From Stegostoma tigrinum (taxonomy: Eukaryota): a stretch of DNA of 64,000 bases. Each line of letters starts with the position of its first letter. Position 1 is the first letter of the stretch. Position numbers and translations under genes: made by a program. Positions 1,975 through 36,009 of this stretch are shown piece after piece. Below the pieces are notes generated by a model. The model was not told the origin of the DNA and did not search any database. It was given only the letters and a program-made list of their open reading frames with translations. The stretch spans positions 26,964,647-27,028,646 of the forward strand of contig NC_081387.1 of NCBI RefSeq assembly GCF_030684315.1, given 5' to 3'.

Positions 1975-2493
1975 ATGCCGAAGGCTCCCCGAGCCTGGGC
2001 CGGCAACCCGGCGGCCAGGAGGCAGCAACAGCAGCCTCCTTCGCCTCAGCAGCGGCAGCAACAACAGAAGCAGCTGCGGCCTGACCGTCGCCAGCGGCGG
2101 CAGGAGGTGCGGATCTCGCAGCTGATCCTCCAGGCGCTGTCGGCCCGCAAGCAGCGGGGCGCCCTGTCGCTCAACTCCCTCCGCAAGGCGCTGCTGGACA
2201 GCGGCTACGACGTGGAGCGCAACAAGAACCGGGTGCAGCTGGCCATCCAGAACTTAGTCAGCAGCGGCTCGCTGGTACAGACCACGGCCACCGGCTCTCT
2301 CAAGCTCGGCGCCTGCCACAAGCAGGAGGCCGAACCACCTCCAGGGGCGGAGCCGCCGACAACCACGTCCCTAATCCCAGCCAAAGAAGGGAGTGTTTCT
2401 GCCTGCGCCAGGGACGAAGCTCAGCCACCCAATAAGAAACCCCGCAGGAGACGGGTCACGAGGAAGTCAAGGACGAAGAAGACTAGGAAGTGA
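1975..2493 (+). CDS. Histone H1-derived, protamine-like basic protein A (172 aa)
   Basis: Intronless ATG ORF. It has an H1 winged-helix-like segment ISQLILQALSARKQRGALSLNSLRKALLDSGYDVERNKNRVQLAIQNLVSSGSLVQT, a Q/R-rich N-terminus and a basic C-end (about 23 R, 14 K). TATA-like box upstream and histone stem-loop downstream. Confidence 0.85.
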   Translation: MPKAPRAWAGNPAARRQQQQPPSPQQRQQQQKQLRPDRRQRRQEVRISQLILQALSARKQRGALSLNSLRKALLDSGYDVERNKNRVQLAIQNLVSSGSLVQTTATGSLKLGACHKQEAEPPPGAEPPTTTSLIPAKEGSVSACARDEAQPPNKKPRRRRVTRKSRTKKTRK

Positions 2494-3627: not shown

Positions 3628-4850
3628 CTAATTCTACCAAAATGATGAAGGCGCTAGGCCCAAAACGTCAGGTTTTGTGCTCCTAAGATGCTGCTTGGCC
3701 TGCTGTGTTCATCCAGCTCCACACTTTGTTATCTCGGATTCTCCAGCATCTGCAGTCCCCATTATCTCTGTTTTCATAGAGGGATATGGGTCAAATGCTG
3801 GAAAATGGGACGAGATTAATTTGGGATATCTGGTCGGCATGGACGAGTTGAACCGAAGGGTCTGTTTATACATAGTACAATGCAAAAGGAAGTTTTCACT
3901 GCACTAGCCTGGAATATCAGCCCAGTTCTACCCTCCACAAAACTTTTTTTAAGCTGTTGTCATTCTGGTCCTAACAGTTTAAAGAAAGGAGATCGTGGAT
4001 CAATTAAAGCTTGGCCAGCCACCCTGTCCCATCCCCTTTTACGTTCAACATTTTATTTTCCGCCCCTAGTTGCCTTTGAGAAGGTGGTGATGAGCTGCTT
4101 TCTTGTGAAATAATTTTATGGGTCATTGTGGAACACGATAAAGATAGGCTCTTAAAGAAAACCATCAATTTAAATAAATCCCAAACCGGCTAACTTCATG
4201 ATCAGTTGATGCAATACTGGACAATCTTGTTCAGCGAAAATTGGCATATAAAATAAATCGCCAGTGAAATAGCTTTATGATCTCTGTGGAACACAAGGTA
4301 GTAGACTATTAAATCAGCGAGTTCAGCAAATCCCTAAAACAACTTTCTGATCTGGTATGTTCACTACTTGTGATTTTCTAAAAGATAAATAAATAAATCC
4401 TGTGTAGAACGGCTGTTTAGTTTTCGTGAAAAATGAGTCTGTGTTCCGTGTCTCAGGGCTGGAATTGCACTCTGGCATAATAAAACTAGTGGAGATCTGA
4501 AACAAAAGCAGAAATTGCTGGATAAACCCAACAGGTCTGGCAGCATCTGTGGAAAAATCAAGTTAACGCTTCGGGTCGAATGACTCTTCCTCAAAAATGA
4601 TGTTGCCAGACCTGCTGAGATTATCCAACGATTCCTGGTTTTTGTTGGTGCTTTTCAGCATTCGCCGTTCTTTCAGCTTTCCAAAAGAAAACCAATTTCT
4701 AGAGGAGCTCAGCTCAGCACCTCTGTCCGTACCTGTGAAAAAAAGCAAGAGTTAACGTTTCGATTTCATTGACTCTCCTTCAGAATTTCGGTGTGTTCTG
4801 ATTTCTGTGATAAGACGAAGCGGGAGAATAACGCGTTGAGTGGAGGTGAG

Positions 4851-4892
4851 CCAGCTCTTTCTAGCCGCGGTGTGGTGGCTCTGAAAAGAGCC
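4851..4892 (-). terminator. Histone 3' stem-loop plus U7 histone downstream element (gene B)
   Basis: Minus strand GGCTCTTTTCAGAGCC (4877-4892), then ACCAC, then AAAGAGCTGG (4851-4860). Confidence 0.93.
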
Positions 4893-4970
4893 GTTTGTAC
4901 AGGAGACAGAGGTGAGGGCGTCAGACCGCTCCATCCTCTCCCCCGGAAATAATCGGTTGAACGGGGCGTC

Positions 4971-5945
4971 TCAGTATTTCCTCTGGCGGGCAGCCAACCT
5001 CTTCCCCCGGGATCCCCGCGGCTTGCCGCGGGAGGTGCCGTACCCGGGCAGCTTCCGGCCGCGATGCCGAGCCGCCGGCTTGTACTTAGCGTAGAGCCGG
5101 GCAGGCCTGCGGGTGGGAGCCGAGTAGTAATAGTAGTGGGTGGCAGCAGCGGCGGAGGTGCCGGAGCTGCTTTTCAGGCGGGCGGTCTTGGCCGGGCCCC
5201 GGCGGCCGGTGAAGCGCGGTTTGCGACGGCCTCCTCGTCCTCCGTTGCGGCGGTAGCGGGCTCGGTACTGCTGCTGGCGGCGTCGAACAGTGACCTTCCG
5301 ACCCTTGGACCCTGCTCCCGTCCATGCTCCTCCTTCGGAGGCGGCAGCGGCGTCTTTGCGCCGGGTGTATTTCTTCCGGAGCCGGGCCGGTGGCGATCTC
5401 CGGGAGACGGGGTGTTGGCGCTGGCGTTTGGCCGCCCGTTTCTTCTTGGCTTTGTCCTTCCTGGATCCTCCGCCGCCTCCTGCTCCTCCACCGCCCACCG
5501 CGCCCCGGTTCAAGCGGAACGAGCCCGAGGCCCCGATGCCCGCCGTCTGCACCAGGGAGCCTTTGAGGACCAGGTTCTTCACCGTCTGGTTGACCCGCGT
5601 GTTGTTGCGGCTCACGTCGCAGCCCTTGGCCGACAGAGCCTTCTTGAGGGCGGCCAGCGAGATGCCGCGCCGCTCCTTGGTGGCGGCCGCCACGTGGAGG
5701 ATCTGCTCGGCCATGGTAGGACCCCCCTTGCGGCGCTGCGCTAAGCGAGGCCGGAGCTGCTGCTGAGACTGCTGCGGCTGCTGTAGGTTCTGCTGCTGCG
5801 GGGACTGCTGCTGCTGGTTTTGCTTCCTTTTTTTCTTGCCCGCCGCCTTCTCGGCGCCCGTTCGAGGCTGAGAGCCGGGTGGCGTATCCCCTCCACCCGC
5901 GGCCGACTCGCCGGCGTCGTCCGCCTTCTGGCTGCCGTCAGCCAT
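4971..5945 (-). CDS. Histone H1-derived, protamine-like basic protein B (324 aa)
   Basis: Best-conserved H1 globular domain here: AEQILHVAAATKERRGISLAALKKALSAKGCDVSRNNTRVNQTVKNLVLKGSLVQTAGIGASGSFRLN. Q-rich N-terminus and a long R/G/Y-rich tail (about 49 R, 33 K, 11 Y). Stem-loop and HDE downstream. Confidence 0.9.
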   Translation of the reverse strand: MADGSQKADDAGESAAGGGDTPPGSQPRTGAEKAAGKKKRKQNQQQQSPQQQNLQQPQQSQQQLRPRLAQRRKGGPTMAEQILHVAAATKERRGISLAALKKALSAKGCDVSRNNTRVNQTVKNLVLKGSLVQTAGIGASGSFRLNRGAVGGGGAGGGGGSRKDKAKKKRAAKRQRQHPVSRRSPPARLRKKYTRRKDAAAASEGGAWTGAGSKGRKVTVRRRQQQYRARYRRNGGRGGRRKPRFTGRRGPAKTARLKSSSGTSAAAATHYYYYSAPTRRPARLYAKYKPAARHRGRKLPGYGTSRGKPRGSRGKRLAARQRKY

Positions 5946-6194: not shown

Positions 6195-8140
6195 AGATCC
6201 CGCCTCCTTTCATCTCCCCTCCCTCAAATTCCTCTTCCTCCAACCCTCCATTACTGTTCTCTTCTGCCATTTAATCGCGATCCGAACTCTGCGTCTGTTC
6301 GATTTATTAATCCCGGTTCTTCCTTCACTAATCTCCTCGCCTCCTATCCTTGGTTTCTTTTTGTCCCTCGATATTTCGACAGTTTTCGTCTTTTTAACAT
6401 AGGCGCCACCCAACGTGTTGAGTTTTCTCCAGCACCTTTCTGTGTTTATTTTGGCTTCAGAAAACTATAGGTACAGCTTTTTTTTTAATAGTTGCGTGAA
6501 TGTTCAGCAAGACATCAACATGGTATTAATTCATGTGAAAATTAATACTTAAACGAATACTTCAAATAGCACCCCCATTGTTACGTTAACCGTTTAATTT
6601 TGCAACAACCAGCTACTTAGACACTGAAAAATCCAGCTGTCCATTATTGTACCTGATAAATATAATTTTAAATTAGTAATTACTGTAATCATAATGAATC
6701 ATTGAATTGAGTGTTTATAATCTTGTCGCTACTGTTTGAATGAGCGGCTGAGGCAAATTCTATCGCAGCTTTGAAAAGAGAATTAGATTTGAGCTCCTTC
6801 GAAGAAGGACAGTGAAAGAGAGAGGAATGCGATCTTCAGAGCAGTCCTCAAACAACGGACCTCAAGGCATTGTCTGTTATTTTTAATGATATAGTTGGGT
6901 GATTCTACACTAAGCATTCACGCTGTTTCTCCACATGTTTTCTGTAACTTCAGGACTCTCGTTTAATTCCGTTTCAGGACTTTCCCATTCTCTGAAAGTC
7001 TACATCTGGCTTCTTCCCTGAATATCGTTTCTTGCTGGGCGGTTTGGAATCAGCAAGGGTCAATAATATCATACGGAAATTGAATGGGCCCAAGGGTGAA
7101 GTAGGCTTGCAGAGAGGGCCACGAGGATCCAGCGGAGGAAATGGGTTCAAATGCACTGGTCTGCAGAGAGCAGGCTCGATGGTGTGAATGGCCTCCTGTC
7201 CTGTACATGACGATGATTCCGCTGGAGTATTATTTATAATTCTGGGCTCGTTGGGAAAGATTTGAAGATTACAGAAGAGCTTTAAATGATTGCTCCCAGG
7301 AATGAGAGACGGAAGGGCACATGTAATGTGCAAATGAAGTAAATGTGATGTGAGTGGGTTTTTTGTTCCACATAATGAATGATCTGGGTCTGGATTGCAC
7401 TGCCAGCAAGCGTGCTGCAGGCACGTTCAATGATGCATTCCAGAATGAAAACCATGCAGGAGCCTGGTCCTGCGCCGGGAGACGGTGTAGACACGGCGGG
7501 CCGAGCAGCCTCCTTCTCCGCTGTAACAGTACTGTGATTTTATCATGCTACCCTTCGATATCACTTTATCCCCTAACGCTTCTAATCGAAGATGAAGTTT
7601 ATGGTCGATGACTGTATTCAGATACGACGCGCCATTTTATGTGATTCAATTCTACAATTCTTTCTTATTATTCTATTTTATGACCGCTGAATCGATTCTG
7701 TTAAAATTTCAGCCAACTGGCCAAATAAAACAACAATTTGAATTGGCAGTTCCTAGAGCGCAGGTATGCAAATGATAAATCAAACTTACGAATTTAAATG
7801 AAAATGCAATTTTTTTACGGGAAGTGGAGGGAGGAATGATAACGCTCATCTCCCCAATCCTGGTTCACTCTGACCCTACGGGTTCTCTTATCTACGAATC
7901 TATTCTGATTATTTTCTACTGATGCTGTGTTTGTTTTAAACGCAGTCGCATTCAGTGACAATCCAGAATTAGATCGGCAAGTAACTCCGCCGGGATTCGG
8001 CCAGCGCGGCAAGTGGGAAGGGCGTGACGGCAGGTTGCTCCTACCCCGTCCGCCCGCGCCCTTTATCTGGGCCGCGGCCGTCGCTGCTCCGTCATTCCTT
8101 CCGCCCGCTGCTCAGGCCGGGGTCGGTGACCGATGTGGTT

Positions 8141-8679
8141 GTTGTGGAGCCTGTGATTCCCGGTTTTCGCGGTTCCAACTCCATCACTTCGCGTCTCAAG
8201 CGTTTCCGTCGTCCTCCCAACTGGCGCCAAGAAAACGACGGCCTAACGAGTGCGGCAAACGGGCTGCGGTTGCCGAGTGGATCCTGGAGGCGGGAGCCGC
8301 CACCGGGGAATGCCAGCCGCCAGCCAAACCGAAGAAAACCCCTGCGACCGCGGGATACAAATCGAGGGGCGGTCCCAGCCAACTGGACCCGTCCTATAGT
8401 ACCGTGGCTAACAAAGGCTCCTCGGTCTCCTTGCACCCGCGCCTGGTGCTGAAAAAGAACAGAGAAAGACAGACTAGAAGGGCTGGGAGCAGCGCCAGAA
8501 GTATCAGGAAAGTGCCGGCAGCAGCCAAGATCTCGAAAACCTCGACAAAAATAACTGCGAGGAGTCCCAGGAAGAAAATAAAAGCAGTGGCCAAGACGAA
8601 AAAACCGTCCAGCCGGGCGACAACGACTGGGTGCAGACTCCGGGGGAGGAAGCAGGTAACTGCGATGAAGAGAAGATAA
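8141..8679 (+). pseudogene. Probable pseudogene of an H1-like gene (locus C), paralogue of gene D at 32166-32747
   Basis: VAEWILEAGAATGECQPPAK..KKTPATAGY..ANKGS aligns with gene D and has an H1-like K/A tail with SPRK. There is no in-frame start ATG: GTT GTG GAG CCT GTG stands where D has ATG GCG GAG ACT GTG, and in a different frame from the rest. The TATA is degraded to TTTATCT. The 3' UTR closely matches gene D. Confidence 0.7.
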
Positions 8680-32165: not shown

Positions 32166-32747
32166 CTACCTTCTCTTCTTCCCCGTCGTCGCCCGTTTCC
32201 CCGCCGCCCGCTTGGGGGTTTTCCTGGCCTTGGCCGCCGTCCCCTTCCGGGGGCTTTTGGCCGCCGCTTTCTTGGTGCCTTTGGCCGCCGCCGCCCTTTT
32301 GGGGGCCGCTTTCCTCTTGGTTGCTCTTTTCTTGGGCCGATCCTGAACTTCTTCCTCCTTCACCTCCTGCTGCTGCCTCTGCTCCGGCTGCAAGGTGGAG
32401 GCGGAGGTTCCGGGCCCGCTTTCGCTCGCCGAGCCCCCCTTGTTGGCCGAAGAGCTACCGGGCGGCGGGTTGGGCCGACCCGGGCCACCCTTCTCCATCG
32501 GCTCGTAACCCGCGGCCGAGATGGTTTTCTTCAGAGACCCGCCGAGCTTGGCTGGCGCCTGGCGCTCCTTGGCAGCGGCCACCGCCTCCAGAATCTGCTC
32601 TGCCGCCGCGGTGGTAGCGCCACCTCCACCACCTTTCTGAGGTCGGTAAGCGGCTTTCTTCTTGGCGGCGGCGGCGGCTGGGACTGCGGCAGATTCCGGG
32701 GCAGTAGCCGCCGGGACGTCACCTCTAACAGGCACAGTCTCCGCCAT
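32166..32747 (-). CDS. Histone H1-like protein D (193 aa) with degenerate globular domain
   Basis: H1-type start MAETVP and K/A tail with SPRK and TPKR. AEQILEAVAAAKER..SLKKTISAAGY is retained, but helix 3 and the wing are P/G/S-rich. ATG at 32747 follows the TATA at 32807-32813. Confidence 0.85.
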   Translation of the reverse strand: MAETVPVRGDVPAATAPESAAVPAAAAAKKKAAYRPQKGGGGGATTAAAEQILEAVAAAKERQAPAKLGGSLKKTISAAGYEPMEKGGPGRPNPPPGSSSANKGGSASESGPGTSASTLQPEQRQQQEVKEEEVQDRPKKRATKRKAAPKRAAAAKGTKKAAAKSPRKGTAAKARKTPKRAAGKRATTGKKRR

Positions 32748-32839: not shown

Positions 32840-34795
32840 AACTTGCGGCTAATCTCCGCCCCCTCCGCCCCACCCACCGTGAGGTGGCCGCGCCCCCTCA
32901 TTTGGACCACGCCCGTAGCCGCTAGGCCACACCCCCTTCTCGTGTCACCTCTCGGAAATGAGACGGCACCAGGTTTATTTGAAGACGCGAGTTCCTGGTT
33001 CAAACCAGCTCAACACCGGCACCTCCATATCAGAAAGGAGCGACAGCAGCAAGTCTGTATCGTCGCTTCATCTTGTCAGTTATGTCTGTTCGCCAATTGT
33101 CTGACCCTTGTCTGTCTGCCTCTTGGCCGTTTATTACCTGAAACAAAAACCAAGTTGTCACTTAGTACTAACTGCTTCTACCTGCTTCCTGCGGGTCCGG
33201 CAGCATCTGTGAAGATGGAAATCAGAGTTAACGTTCCGGCTCCAGTGACTCCAGGTCTCAGAGTCCCCTTGTCATCTCCGATGGCGGAGACCGTGCCTTT
33301 CCTTTATTATCCGTTGTCTTGTCGTTTCTCTCTCTTGTATATAGAATCATAAAATCTACAGTGTGGGAACAGGCCATTCCGTCCATCGAGTCCAGACCTA
33401 CCCGCCAAAGGGTCCCATCCAGACCCACCCAATCTCTTGAACTTTGCATTTCTTATGGCTAACCCACTAATCTGCGCATCTTTGCACTGTCTTCCATGTT
33501 CTGGATGGGTCCTGACATGTGTTATCAATCTGCCCGTCTCCTAGACCATTTGCCTATTCCGTCGTTTACGCGTTTATTGCCTGTGTACATCTGTCCATTT
33601 TCTGTTTCCTTTTTTGTCTATTTCCTCTCTGTTATCTGCCTTTGTGTGACGGGGTCGGGGCTATGGTTAAATCGTCAAGATGCTTGCACGACTCAAGTCT
33701 GGCAAATGGGGGTAAACTGTCCAATTCTACAAAAGTCAATCGAAGAATTTTTTTCACCATTAAAACGCCAAACAAGGTCCCTGGGATTTGGTAAACGATG
33801 CCACTGCTTTCCCAAGAGTTTTTTTTTGTTTTTGTTTGTTTGTTCGATTACAAAACTTTTCAGAAAATGAATTGTAGGATCTTTCTCCCCGTAGGTTTTC
33901 CTTTGGCCGCTTCATAGTGCACGAGGTTTTAGGACGAGATTTCCACCTTAAACTTCCAACCTGGGATTAATGACACCACACTTGGTCTGTCTGTCTATGA
34001 AGCTGACAACGATTTCCTCGATTCGGCGGTTATGAATAAGTCTGCAATGTGGCTATGCTTTATCATTAGTCAGGAATCTCTCGACCACTTTGGACGAGAA
34101 CCTTTCTCTTACATTGTCGATGCTGGTGAAGCCTTCAGCGAGGATACTCGAGTCGCTTGGTCAATGTAGCCCATTGATATAGCCTGTGATAGAATGCAAT
34201 AAAAAATACTTGTAACTGGCATACATTTTATAGATTAAAACACACAAATTTACCTTCGCTGGTCATCGAGTAACAAAGAGCAACCTTTCGGCACTGTCCG
34301 GTTTGGAAGGGAGGGATAAAAGGCAAGGAAGAAAAGATGGTGTGGGGTTATAACCTGAGGTGAGGGTGAATGTAACAAAAGTGTTCGGGCAACAGCAGAG
34401 ACTAAACGCCAGCGGGGCAGTAACTTTTACCAGTTAGAAATGAGAGAAGTACGGGAAAGGGGGGAGGAGTATAAACTGGAAACTTTTAGTGAAAGCAGGG
34501 AAACTAGAGGACTGTGTAAATTTGGGCAACAAAACAAAATAGCGGGAAAAGCCCAGCAAGTCTAGCAGCAACAGTGGGTGAAATCTCGGATCGATGGAGC
34601 CTTCCTATGGCTTCACCTTCGTAGATGCCGCCAGACCTGCTGAGCTTTTCCAGCAAATTCTGTTTTCGTTCCTGGTTCACAGCATCCGCAGTTCTTTCGG
34701 TTCTTGGGGATGGTTAAAAAGGGGGAGGATGTGTCTCTCAGCCGCCGCCGGAGTCTGCCCGAAGGATCATCGCCGCTTTTCGGAGGCGGGTTTGT

Positions 34796-34811
34796 GGCTC
34801 TGAAAAGAGCC
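34796..34811 (-). terminator. Histone 3' stem-loop (gene E)
   Basis: Minus strand CCAAAA-GGCTCTTTTCAGAGCC-ACAAA. Confidence 0.9.
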
Positions 34812-34895
34812 TTTTGGTTTTGTGTGTGTGGGCTCCTGTTTGGAAGGGACGGGTGGCCTGGGTCTTCTAATTCGCGGAGAACGCGAGGCAGACGT

Positions 34896-35588
34896 TTAAT
34901 TTCTGCGCCTGGTCCTAGTTTTTCTGGAGGTGACCGTTGTGTGGGTGGCGGTGGTCGCCTTTTCCCCGGCTCCTTTCCTGACCCTCGCCCGGGTGGTGGT
35001 CGTAGCGGCGGTGGGCTTGCCCGACTTCCTCTTCCGCCGGGGGCCGCTGCCGCCTCTCGCAGCCGGGGACCTCCTCCCCTTGACGGCGGCAGCGGTGGTC
35101 GCCCGCTGACCTCTCGCCCTGGTGCGCGTCTGCCTTTGCTGCTGCTTCTTCAGCTGCTGCTTCTGTCTCCGGCTGAGCCGCAGGCAGCCGCCTGCCTCCC
35201 CTCTCCCACCACCCCTGGTCCCCCGGCCCCGGGTCCGCACCAACGAGCCGTTGCGGACCAAGCCGCCGACTGCCGTGCGGAGCTGCGACTTGTTCTTCTC
35301 CACGTCGTAGCCGCTGGAGAGCAGGGCCTCCCGCAGGGAGGTCAGGGACACGCCGCCCGGCTGCTTGCGGGCCGACAGTGCCTGCAGGATCAGCTTATTG
35401 ATGCCCTGCATCCTACGGCGCCTCCTCCGCCGCCGGCCCTGCTCCAAGTGCTCGGGCAGCGGCAGCGGCGGCAGCACGGCCCGCATCTGCGGCCGCTTTT
35501 TCCGCCGCCGCTTCCTGCTGGCTCCCCCGCAGCCGCGGCCCGCCCCCTTCTTTTTCTTCCGCTGCTGTGGGCCGCCGGTGGTCACCAT
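34896..35588 (-). CDS. Histone H1-derived, protamine-like basic protein E (230 aa)
   Basis: Globular segment LILQALSARKQPGGVSLTSLREALLSSGYDVEKNKSQLRTAVGGLVRNGSLVRT is paralogous to gene A. It has an R8 run and about 47 R, 21 K. Stem-loop downstream. Confidence 0.87.
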   Translation of the reverse strand: MVTTGGPQQRKKKKGAGRGCGGASRKRRRKKRPQMRAVLPPLPLPEHLEQGRRRRRRRRMQGINKLILQALSARKQPGGVSLTSLREALLSSGYDVEKNKSQLRTAVGGLVRNGSLVRTRGRGTRGGGRGEAGGCLRLSRRQKQQLKKQQQRQTRTRARGQRATTAAAVKGRRSPAARGGSGPRRKRKSGKPTAATTTTRARVRKGAGEKATTATHTTVTSRKTRTRRRN

Positions 35589-35733
35589 CCGGCGTCGGCG
35601 GGGATTTTAAGCGGAAACTGAGACGGCTGCAGCGTTTCCCCAGCAGCAGCGATGCCCCCGCCCCCCGCCCCAGACACTCGGCGCAACCCCGGACGCGGCT
35701 GCGGACTGCGGGAGGCGGTCGCTGGCCGCCGCT

Positions 35734-35824
35734 ACTTCAAGGCTCAAGGCGGACCGAGGAGGGCGGGCCGGAGCCCTCAGGCCGCCGGCCAATCCGAGGG
35801 CAGGGTGTAGGGCGGCCGCCCAAT
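35734..35824 (-). promoter_or_regulatory. GC-rich promoter of gene E
   Basis: Minus-strand GGTCCGCC (35748-35755) with TTGAAGT at the TATA position, GC boxes, and two inverted CCAAT boxes (35789, 35820). Confidence 0.5.
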
Positions 35825-36009
35825 CGCAACACGCTGCCCGCGAGCGTACGCGCCCCTCCTTCACGGGTCACGCCCCCGCGCCTGTTGGAGACGCCCATCA
35901 CCCCCAACAGGGCACGCCCCGTGCATGTAACACGCCCGTTTGCCACATGATGATATGGTACAGGAGCCCACCCATGTTGCTCGCTCATGCAATGAATTTG
36001 TGACTGGTA

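Follow-up and report, generated by a model that had tools for sequence, protein, structure and literature searches.

Gene E, an intronless minus-strand reading frame (35588 to 34896) in a 64,000-nucleotide stretch of the Stegostoma tigrinum genome (the window, analysed at its full length; Table 1), encodes a linker histone H1 of 230 residues that apparently represents a conserved, undescribed and unannotated H1 subtype of sharks and rays. The unusual trait of the protein is the exchange of Lys for Arg at an ordinary total content of basic residues. Judged from the sequence, chances are about even that gene E encodes an H1 variant of the male germ line, whose binding to DNA would show little specificity for nucleosomes. 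A full-text literature search, with most subscription papers outside its scope, found no account of these shark H1 variants. The exact protein was not found in a collection of 15 billion proteins, is present in the ESM Atlas, and seems to be missing from the annotation.

Table 1. Features of gene E and neighbouring genes, in positions of the window
Feature	Position	Strand	Basis
Gene A, H1-like, 5-residue wing	1975-2493	+	stem-loop 2539-2584
Gene B, H1-like, 324 aa, canonical 8-residue wing	4971-5945	-	ORF
Gene C, H1-like	about 8100-8679	+	stem-loop
Gene D	32166-32747	-	stem-loop, intact ORF, TATA box
Gene E, histone 3' stem-loop (hairpin 34811-34796) with purine-rich element behind	34771-34816	-	Rfam-type search, z -4.1
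Gene E, CDS, intronless, 230-aa linker histone H1 variant	34896-35588	-	ORF list, Pfam
Gene E, disordered Arg/Thr/Ala tail without S/T-P-x-K/R motifs	34899-35087	-	sequence, model
Gene E, predicted Gln/Arg/Lys helix just past the wing, residues 140-167	35088-35171	-	model only
Gene E, winged-helix globular domain, residues 61-138	35175-35408	-	Pfam, structure model, fold match
Gene E, expanded RG-rich wing, residues 120-135 (16 vs 8 residues)	35184-35231	-	sequence, model, alignment
Gene E, second Arg cluster R8, residues 52-59; predicted helix 1 extension	35412-35435	-	sequence, model
Gene E, first Arg cluster RKRRRKKR, residues 25-32	35493-35516	-	one copy of 75-nt spaced repeat
Gene E, TATA-less CpG-island 5' region with GC boxes	35589-35830	-	sequence scan
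Gene E, TTAAAA, probably inside the 5' UTR	35605-35610	-	22 nt before ATG
Gene E, inverted CCAAT boxes (-205, -236)	35789-35793, 35820-35824	-	sequence scan

Residues 64-126 matched Pfam PF00538 (E 6e-9, 36.4 bits against a cut-off of 22.4), and the protein has the build of the linker histone H1/H5 family, a winged helix with basic disordered arms. In the predicted structure, helices extending to residue 73 and over residues 82-92 and 100-113 are followed by strands at 116-119 and 135-138; pLDDT is low outside residues 61-160, and the helix behind the wing has values of 90, 82 and 59 for residues 141-150, 151-160 and 161-170, respectively. The best structural match of the model was human H1.1 (E 7e-6, rmsd 1.9). 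The domain scored 52-57 bits on H1.1-H1.4 and 14-22 bits on H1.0, H5 and H1x (16-22 on H1.0 and H5), and the fold match gave the same order. By these scores gene E appears clearly to derive from a replication-dependent H1 and not from H5.

Both in sequence and in fold, the globular domain is closest to replication-dependent H1 (human H1.1-H1.5) and H1t (H1.6). Rhinoceros H1t showed 41% identity over 86 columns, with an 8-residue gap in the alignment at the wing. These histones share with gene E the absence of introns, the stem-loop and the location in a histone cluster, whereas gene E differs by eight additional wing residues, Arg in place of Lys, an N-terminal arm of 60 residues with two Arg clusters and the absence of S/TPxK. 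From canonical somatic H1 it departs in wing length (16), tail Lys (11%) and number of S/TPxK motifs (0). In a tree of 42 rows and 61 columns, the H1t-type rows P0087, P0110 and P0117 formed a clade of their own among tetrapod-type H1 (support 100/98) with gene E outside, and on this placement gene E is not an H1t (H1.6) orthologue.

The gene itself is of the replication-dependent histone type: intronless, clustered, provided with a 3' stem-loop and devoid of AATAAA or ATTAAA within 300 nt on the 3' side. The stem-loop begins 85 nt past the stop codon, scores 31.4 bits (E 4.6e-5), which is under the gathering score of 34 bits, and its hairpin is identical to those of genes B and D. One contig of the DNA run X4 spans positions 34671-35950, ungapped and with a single different letter, so an assembly artefact in the wing, which we had considered, is excluded.

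To place gene E among known proteins, a profile of four A/E domains was used, which retrieved 459 library proteins at E 0.001 or better; the best 150 of the 459 were considered, and a further homologue search added 16 named hits. A homologue search with the whole protein gave just 2 proteins among 8000 scored candidates and a search with the region 1 among 184. In the 42-row tree, whose rows were picked from a 156-row quick tree, A- and E-type proteins grouped together in a single clade (100/96) made up of 11 shark and ray rows. Within it, gene E, Heptranchias XP_067830038.1 and Mobula XP_062903895.1 were united as a subclade (95/94), with a long branch for Mobula. No bony fish or chimaera protein fell into the A/E clade among the 42 rows, a set that is not genome-wide. 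Gene E thus appears to be a member of an elasmobranch-only H1 lineage shared with gene A.

Orthologues of gene E were recognized in Heptranchias (a hexanchiform shark), in Mobula (a ray) and in a relative, organism A; for several sharks having an A-type record, no E-type record was found in the homologue search. Aligning the orthologues, a check proposed in the first-pass annotation of this DNA, showed that the wing varies in length and that the Arg-rich N-terminal arm is kept, its Arg content being 26-28% in all three named E-type proteins. The two database entries, both carrying the automatic name 'histone H1-like', resemble gene E in this arm and in a lengthened wing. The Heptranchias perlo protein, which starts with MV like gene E and shows 82% identity over 69% of the domain region, differs by an 11-residue wing and a Lys-rich tail. 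In the Mobula protein (P0062), an Arg/Gln run stands in place of helix 3 and the first strand, and the Pfam score (13.5 bits) is below the cut-off. This protein may have moved still further from the H1 fold, or its sequence may carry a local frameshift or an error.

Contigs of organism A (893, 953 and 401 letters) were present in all three small runs, which come from 2 studies. Cover at 80% likeness leaves out most of the tail, the 3' end and the upstream promoter. Among the differences listed, those in the core (residues 61-119) comprise 7 synonymous ones (49.7 sites) and 3 replacements (127.3 sites), corresponding to a dN/dS of about 0.15 (Fisher p 0.006), a value that rests on 10 changes. 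Since the core is under purifying selection, gene E is not a pseudogene. In the N-terminal arm, 12 of the 20 changed codons listed carry replacements and both Arg clusters are kept; the reading frame is retained through several indels. In length the three contigs roughly fit a transcript that runs from the 5' region up to the stem-loop; they extend 75-100 letters upstream of the ATG, and two of them match 27 letters from position 35681. The runs are classed as RNA by a program's guess, and as contigs show neither starts nor levels, this is a weak hint that the gene E orthologue is transcribed; the contig ends are likewise a weak hint of the 5' end of a transcript. A search of sequencing runs with gene E listed no RNA run, a result without bearing on its expression.

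The same comparison settled the start codon. Translation from M35 or M60 had been weighed since TTAAAA lies so near to the ATG, and was rejected: both codons read Thr in organism A, so Met 1 is the start and the Arg clusters are translated. M1 is the only start common to gene E and organism A, and the named orthologues also begin with MV.

The first-pass annotation had placed Arg clusters ahead of the domain and an R/T-rich tail behind it; they are there, starting at residue 25 (RKRRRKKR) and residue 52 (R8), with the terminal motif SRKTRTRRRN from residue 221. Its figure of about 30% Arg+Lys was also correct (29.6%; Arg 20.4%, Lys 9.1%; 38% in the N-terminal arm and 33% in the tail), but it is not diagnostic, as two canonical Lys-rich H1s reach 29.9 and 32.5%. 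What sets the protein apart from these two is an Arg/Lys ratio of 2.2 against 0.03-0.05. An Arg fraction as high was found in one of the 150 library representatives, namely the Mobula orthologue, and a run of at least eight Arg in none of the 150. The tail contains 23% Arg and 11% Lys, with 18.9% Thr across residues 141-230, and a motif scan found no S/T-P-x-K/R in the protein. As the Heptranchias tail is Lys-rich (36% Lys, 9% Arg; Mobula 21% of each), tail Arg is not a conserved trait. The two Cys claimed earlier are present at residues 20 and 135; with no Cys in the Heptranchias orthologue and 5 in that of Mobula, they are not conserved and a disulfide role finds no support.

Whether gene E is the most protamine-like member of the group, as had also been proposed, depends on the measure. 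Its Arg fraction is the highest in the window (20.4% vs 15.1% in B, 13.4% in A and 7.8% in D) and its Arg run the longest, but gene B exceeds it in the number of Arg (49 vs 47) and in net charge (+70 vs +61). Gene B carries a tail of 179 residues, 21% of them Arg, in which there are Tyr runs and an ARYRR stretch that resembles the start of protamine P1; it is as good a protamine-like candidate as gene E. It belongs to another clade with members from Callorhinchus, Hypanus, Carcharodon and Pristiophorus.

How the Arg-rich segments may have arisen is indicated by repeats. The two Arg clusters are linked by the 75-nt spaced repeat (71% over 31 nt), and a 15-nt tandem with 11 of 15 letters matching lies inside the wing. 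Among 20,000 shuffled versions of the protein, 0.055% contained R8 and 0.375% had four RG pairs inside 12 residues, under a null that ignores slippage. The R8 run and the RG-rich wing look like duplication products, for which slippage would have supplied the raw material. We see a small chance that gene E is simply a redundant paralogue under relaxed selection, its Arg clusters and RG wing having come about as side effects of slippage and GC-biased substitution within a CpG island. Its GC3 of 0.87, the highest among the 6 genes measured, the tandem duplications in arm and wing, the degenerate Mobula orthologue, the neighbouring genes C and D without a detectable H1 domain and the E-type records not found for several sharks would all agree with such decay. 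On the other hand, the core dN/dS and the frame kept despite indels in organism A argue against it, as do the retention of the gene in a hexanchiform shark, a carpet shark and a ray and the intact stem-loop and CpG island. Moreover, GC bias alone would not explain why Ala (9%) and Pro (4%), the GC-richest residues, are rare and Thr is abundant.

The 16-residue wing, against 8 in canonical H1, had been read correctly from the letters: the strands on either side are intact in the model and are joined by a low-confidence 15-residue loop (pLDDT 51 for residues 121-130), where human H1.0 has 7 residues. The offsets of -3, 0 and +8 given for genes A, B and E likewise agree with measured lengths of 5, 8 and 16. 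That the wing is a hotspot of change turned out to be an understatement, with lengths of 5, 8, 11, 16 and 19 in the lineage against 8 in 118 of the 134 scored H1 rows outside A/E. For this tally 151 rows were examined and 17 left unscored, and five rows scored as 13 are mis-registered 8s by eye; besides mis-registered rows, the non-8 rows outside A/E comprise gene models that are broken, one wing of 11 and a few proteins with short wings. Among 12 proteins of the A/E lineage, seven have 5 residues, one (the Heptranchias E type) 11, one 16 and two 8 (one by eye), and Mobula is degenerate; the wing therefore differs from 8 in 9 of the 11 readable rows of the clade. In the organism A orthologue, 9 additional nucleotides give, by hand reading, 19 residues with four RG pairs, and apart from this orthologue no H1 protein examined has a longer wing than gene E. 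In other H1s, short wings were linked to Arg share (7 vs 118 rows, p 0.04), an association that was discarded as too weak and as drawn from rows that are not independent. Four RG pairs fall within residues 120-130 of gene E, and the Heptranchias wing has one RG and Lys at the other positions. The RG pairs may have come from a Lys-to-Arg change together with slippage in a Lys-Gly loop, and by motif match they are candidate sites of arginine methylation.

Changes also reach conserved basic positions of the core. Residues 77, 87 and 102, basic in at least 90% of 50 aligned rows, are Pro, Glu and Gln in gene E. With the offset taken from the H1.0 strand boundaries, residues 77 and 87 match R42 and K52 of H5 and Gly 108 matches position 73, whereas the equivalents of K40, K69, K85 and R94 remain basic. 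All of these positions belong to the two-site list of H5 DNA contacts. The core keeps a net charge of +6, compared with +6 and +8 in canonical H1, so charge was moved and not lost. K52, K69 and K85 are given as DNA contacts in PMC6129471, where single changes in the hairpin loop are also described to alter docking; this loop forms the dyad interface according to PMC8927875.

Taken together, these features suggest how a male-germline H1 could have been shaped. Gene E would have arisen from a replication-dependent H1 inside a histone cluster as an elasmobranch-specific functional subtype, serving in spermatocytes or spermatids much as H1t, HILS1 or an early protamine-like protein does. The wing and several conserved basic residues may have been freed from constraint as the dyad fit was given up, in which case the domain would bind nucleosomes weakly or in another mode. 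The flanking Arg clusters could bind and bridge DNA directly, as would be needed while nucleosomes are loosened or removed, and the enlarged wing and the predicted basic helix behind it might bind DNA as well. The best outside support for this germline reading comes, by analogy, from hairpin changes elsewhere: the conserved hairpin appears dispensable in the sperm PL-I of Mullus, where nucleosomes are absent, according to the review PMC4584325, and a spider PL precursor is described in PMC11607694 as devoid of it.

By features, the nearest ESM Atlas cluster is HILS1 (H1.9), the mammalian spermatid H1. When the globular part was compared by itself, the match became one to generic H1 clusters (0.82), which means that gene E owes the 'spermatid' label to its tails. 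This counts against the germline reading, as do the undiminished core charge, the Lys-rich Heptranchias tail and the degenerate Mobula orthologue. HILS1 is divergent and, in the account of PMC6069787, lacks S/TPxK and is a poor condenser; with the motif likewise absent, strong compaction by gene E should not be assumed. The HILS1 gene lies inside an Sgca intron in the same account, gene E in a histone cluster. No HILS1 or H1T2 sequences were among the homologue hits of gene E.

Upstream of gene E, the CpG island has a GC content of 0.70-0.72 and a CpG o/e of 0.85-0.95. A sequence scan found no TATA consensus near the gene, as the remark 'no proper TATA' had anticipated, TTAAAA being just 22 nt ahead of the ATG. 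Such a TATA-less promoter fits broad expression equally well and, like the presence of the orthologue in three different samples, speaks against the germline reading; so does the Arg enrichment of the somatic erythrocyte histone H5 reported in PMC4584325. These same points, with the CCAAT and GC boxes and the fact that both hairpin strands are still predicted, would suit a differentiation variant of somatic or embryonic cells (similar to H5 in nucleated red cells, or belonging to the oocyte or early embryo) in which Arg raises the compaction of nucleosomal chromatin. We nevertheless regard such a role as rather unlikely, given that H5, H1.0 and H1x are described in PMC4584325 as replication-independent, poly(A)+ and still equipped with the conserved hairpin, that gene E is unrelated to all three by domain score and fold, and that nucleosome-binding H1s nearly always have 8 wing residues (118 of the 134 scored).

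A rival to the male-germline H1 reading is that gene E is a sperm protein of the PL type. Fish PL-I (Mullus surmuletus) is described with a winged helix, Arg/Lys-rich arms and an altered hairpin, all of which gene E has too. The Platichthys flounder-type relative of sperm H1 differs from gene E, with a 6-residue wing instead of a lengthened one and 21 SPxK/R motifs against 0, and gene E also lacks Ser-Pro/Arg-Ser repeats. Compared with both, gene E has lower Arg+Lys, a stem-loop instead of poly(A) and a separate clade; in the 42-row tree it did not group with the flounder-type teleost proteins. Dogfish sperm proteins, the scylliorhinines, are short and not known to have a winged helix, which we count against gene E being a true PL-I-type sperm nuclear basic protein, or a precursor from which Arg-rich peptides are cut to take the place of histones in late spermatids or sperm. 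This identity seems to us quite unlikely, although the tripartite build with Arg clusters, the altered hairpin, its counterparts in Mullus and the spider, the single copy of gene E in the window and the use of PLs by sharks (stated by PMC13148410 citing Bloch 1976) are in its favour. Its Arg+Lys content of 29.6% lies outside the 35-50 mol% given for PLs in PMC12159748; PLs are described as H5-derived, that is of H5/H1.0 descent, whereas the domain sides with H1.1-H1.4; and gene E has a stem-loop without a poly(A) signal, whereas the Mullus PL-I mRNA is poly(A)+ (PMC4584325). By composition, gene E is not a PL protein. Nor does it resemble P-type protamines, which are short, contain 50-80% Arg and have no globular domain, being 230 residues long with 20% Arg.

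The origin of protamines from H1 has been argued mainly from invertebrates and one teleost. A shark and ray H1 lineage with varied tail Arg and wing length offers a vertebrate series to test this origin, for which existing testis transcriptomes could be used. The lineage likewise serves as a natural experiment on the H1 wing: lengths from 5 to 19 residues within a single clade raise the question whether nucleosome binding requires the loop that contacts the dyad. We consider it quite improbable that the whole of a more far-reaching scenario applies, in which gene E is a spermatid protein that came from a replication-dependent H1 independently of the H5-derived PLs, the wing is an Arg-Gly DNA-binding loop switched by methylation, and the orthologues are stages from H1 to protamine (Heptranchias with a Lys tail, gene E with an Arg tail and a longer wing, Mobula with a collapsing domain). 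Should expression of gene E prove to be somatic or weak, the gene would simply join the other divergent H1 paralogues.

The window contains seven stem-loop genes (A, B, C, H2A, H4, D and E), that is five H1-like genes, one H2A and one H4. H2B and H3 were not found in it by motif search or tblastn; it contains no canonical Lys-rich H1 and no tRNA genes. Opposite gene E, a 303-residue antisense ORF (34710-35621, +) without Pfam match was rejected as a gene and interpreted as a by-product of GC-rich codons; gene prediction may have been led astray by it here. About 70 nt behind the stem-loop of gene E, positions 34617-34706 are a very high-copy short repeat, present in hundreds to thousands of contigs per run and probably a SINE fragment. 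Genes C and D are a related pair (86% over 70 nt at the 3' end) in which no Pfam H1 domain was detected, and the main frame of gene C has no ATG; they are either decayed H1s or H1 derivatives without the fold. Gene A corresponds to the first 172 residues of Stegostoma tigrinum XP_048375812.2, and the last 55 residues of that entry match positions 4785-4949, antisense to the 3' end of gene B and across its stem-loop. Since gene A has its own stop and stem-loop, the extension is probably a mis-splice. In Heptranchias perlo, one E-type and two A-type proteins (P0003, P0187 and P0189) are each encoded on a contig of 21,079,719 bases; the A/E cluster is probably syntenic there, and the A types of this shark retain the 8-residue wing.
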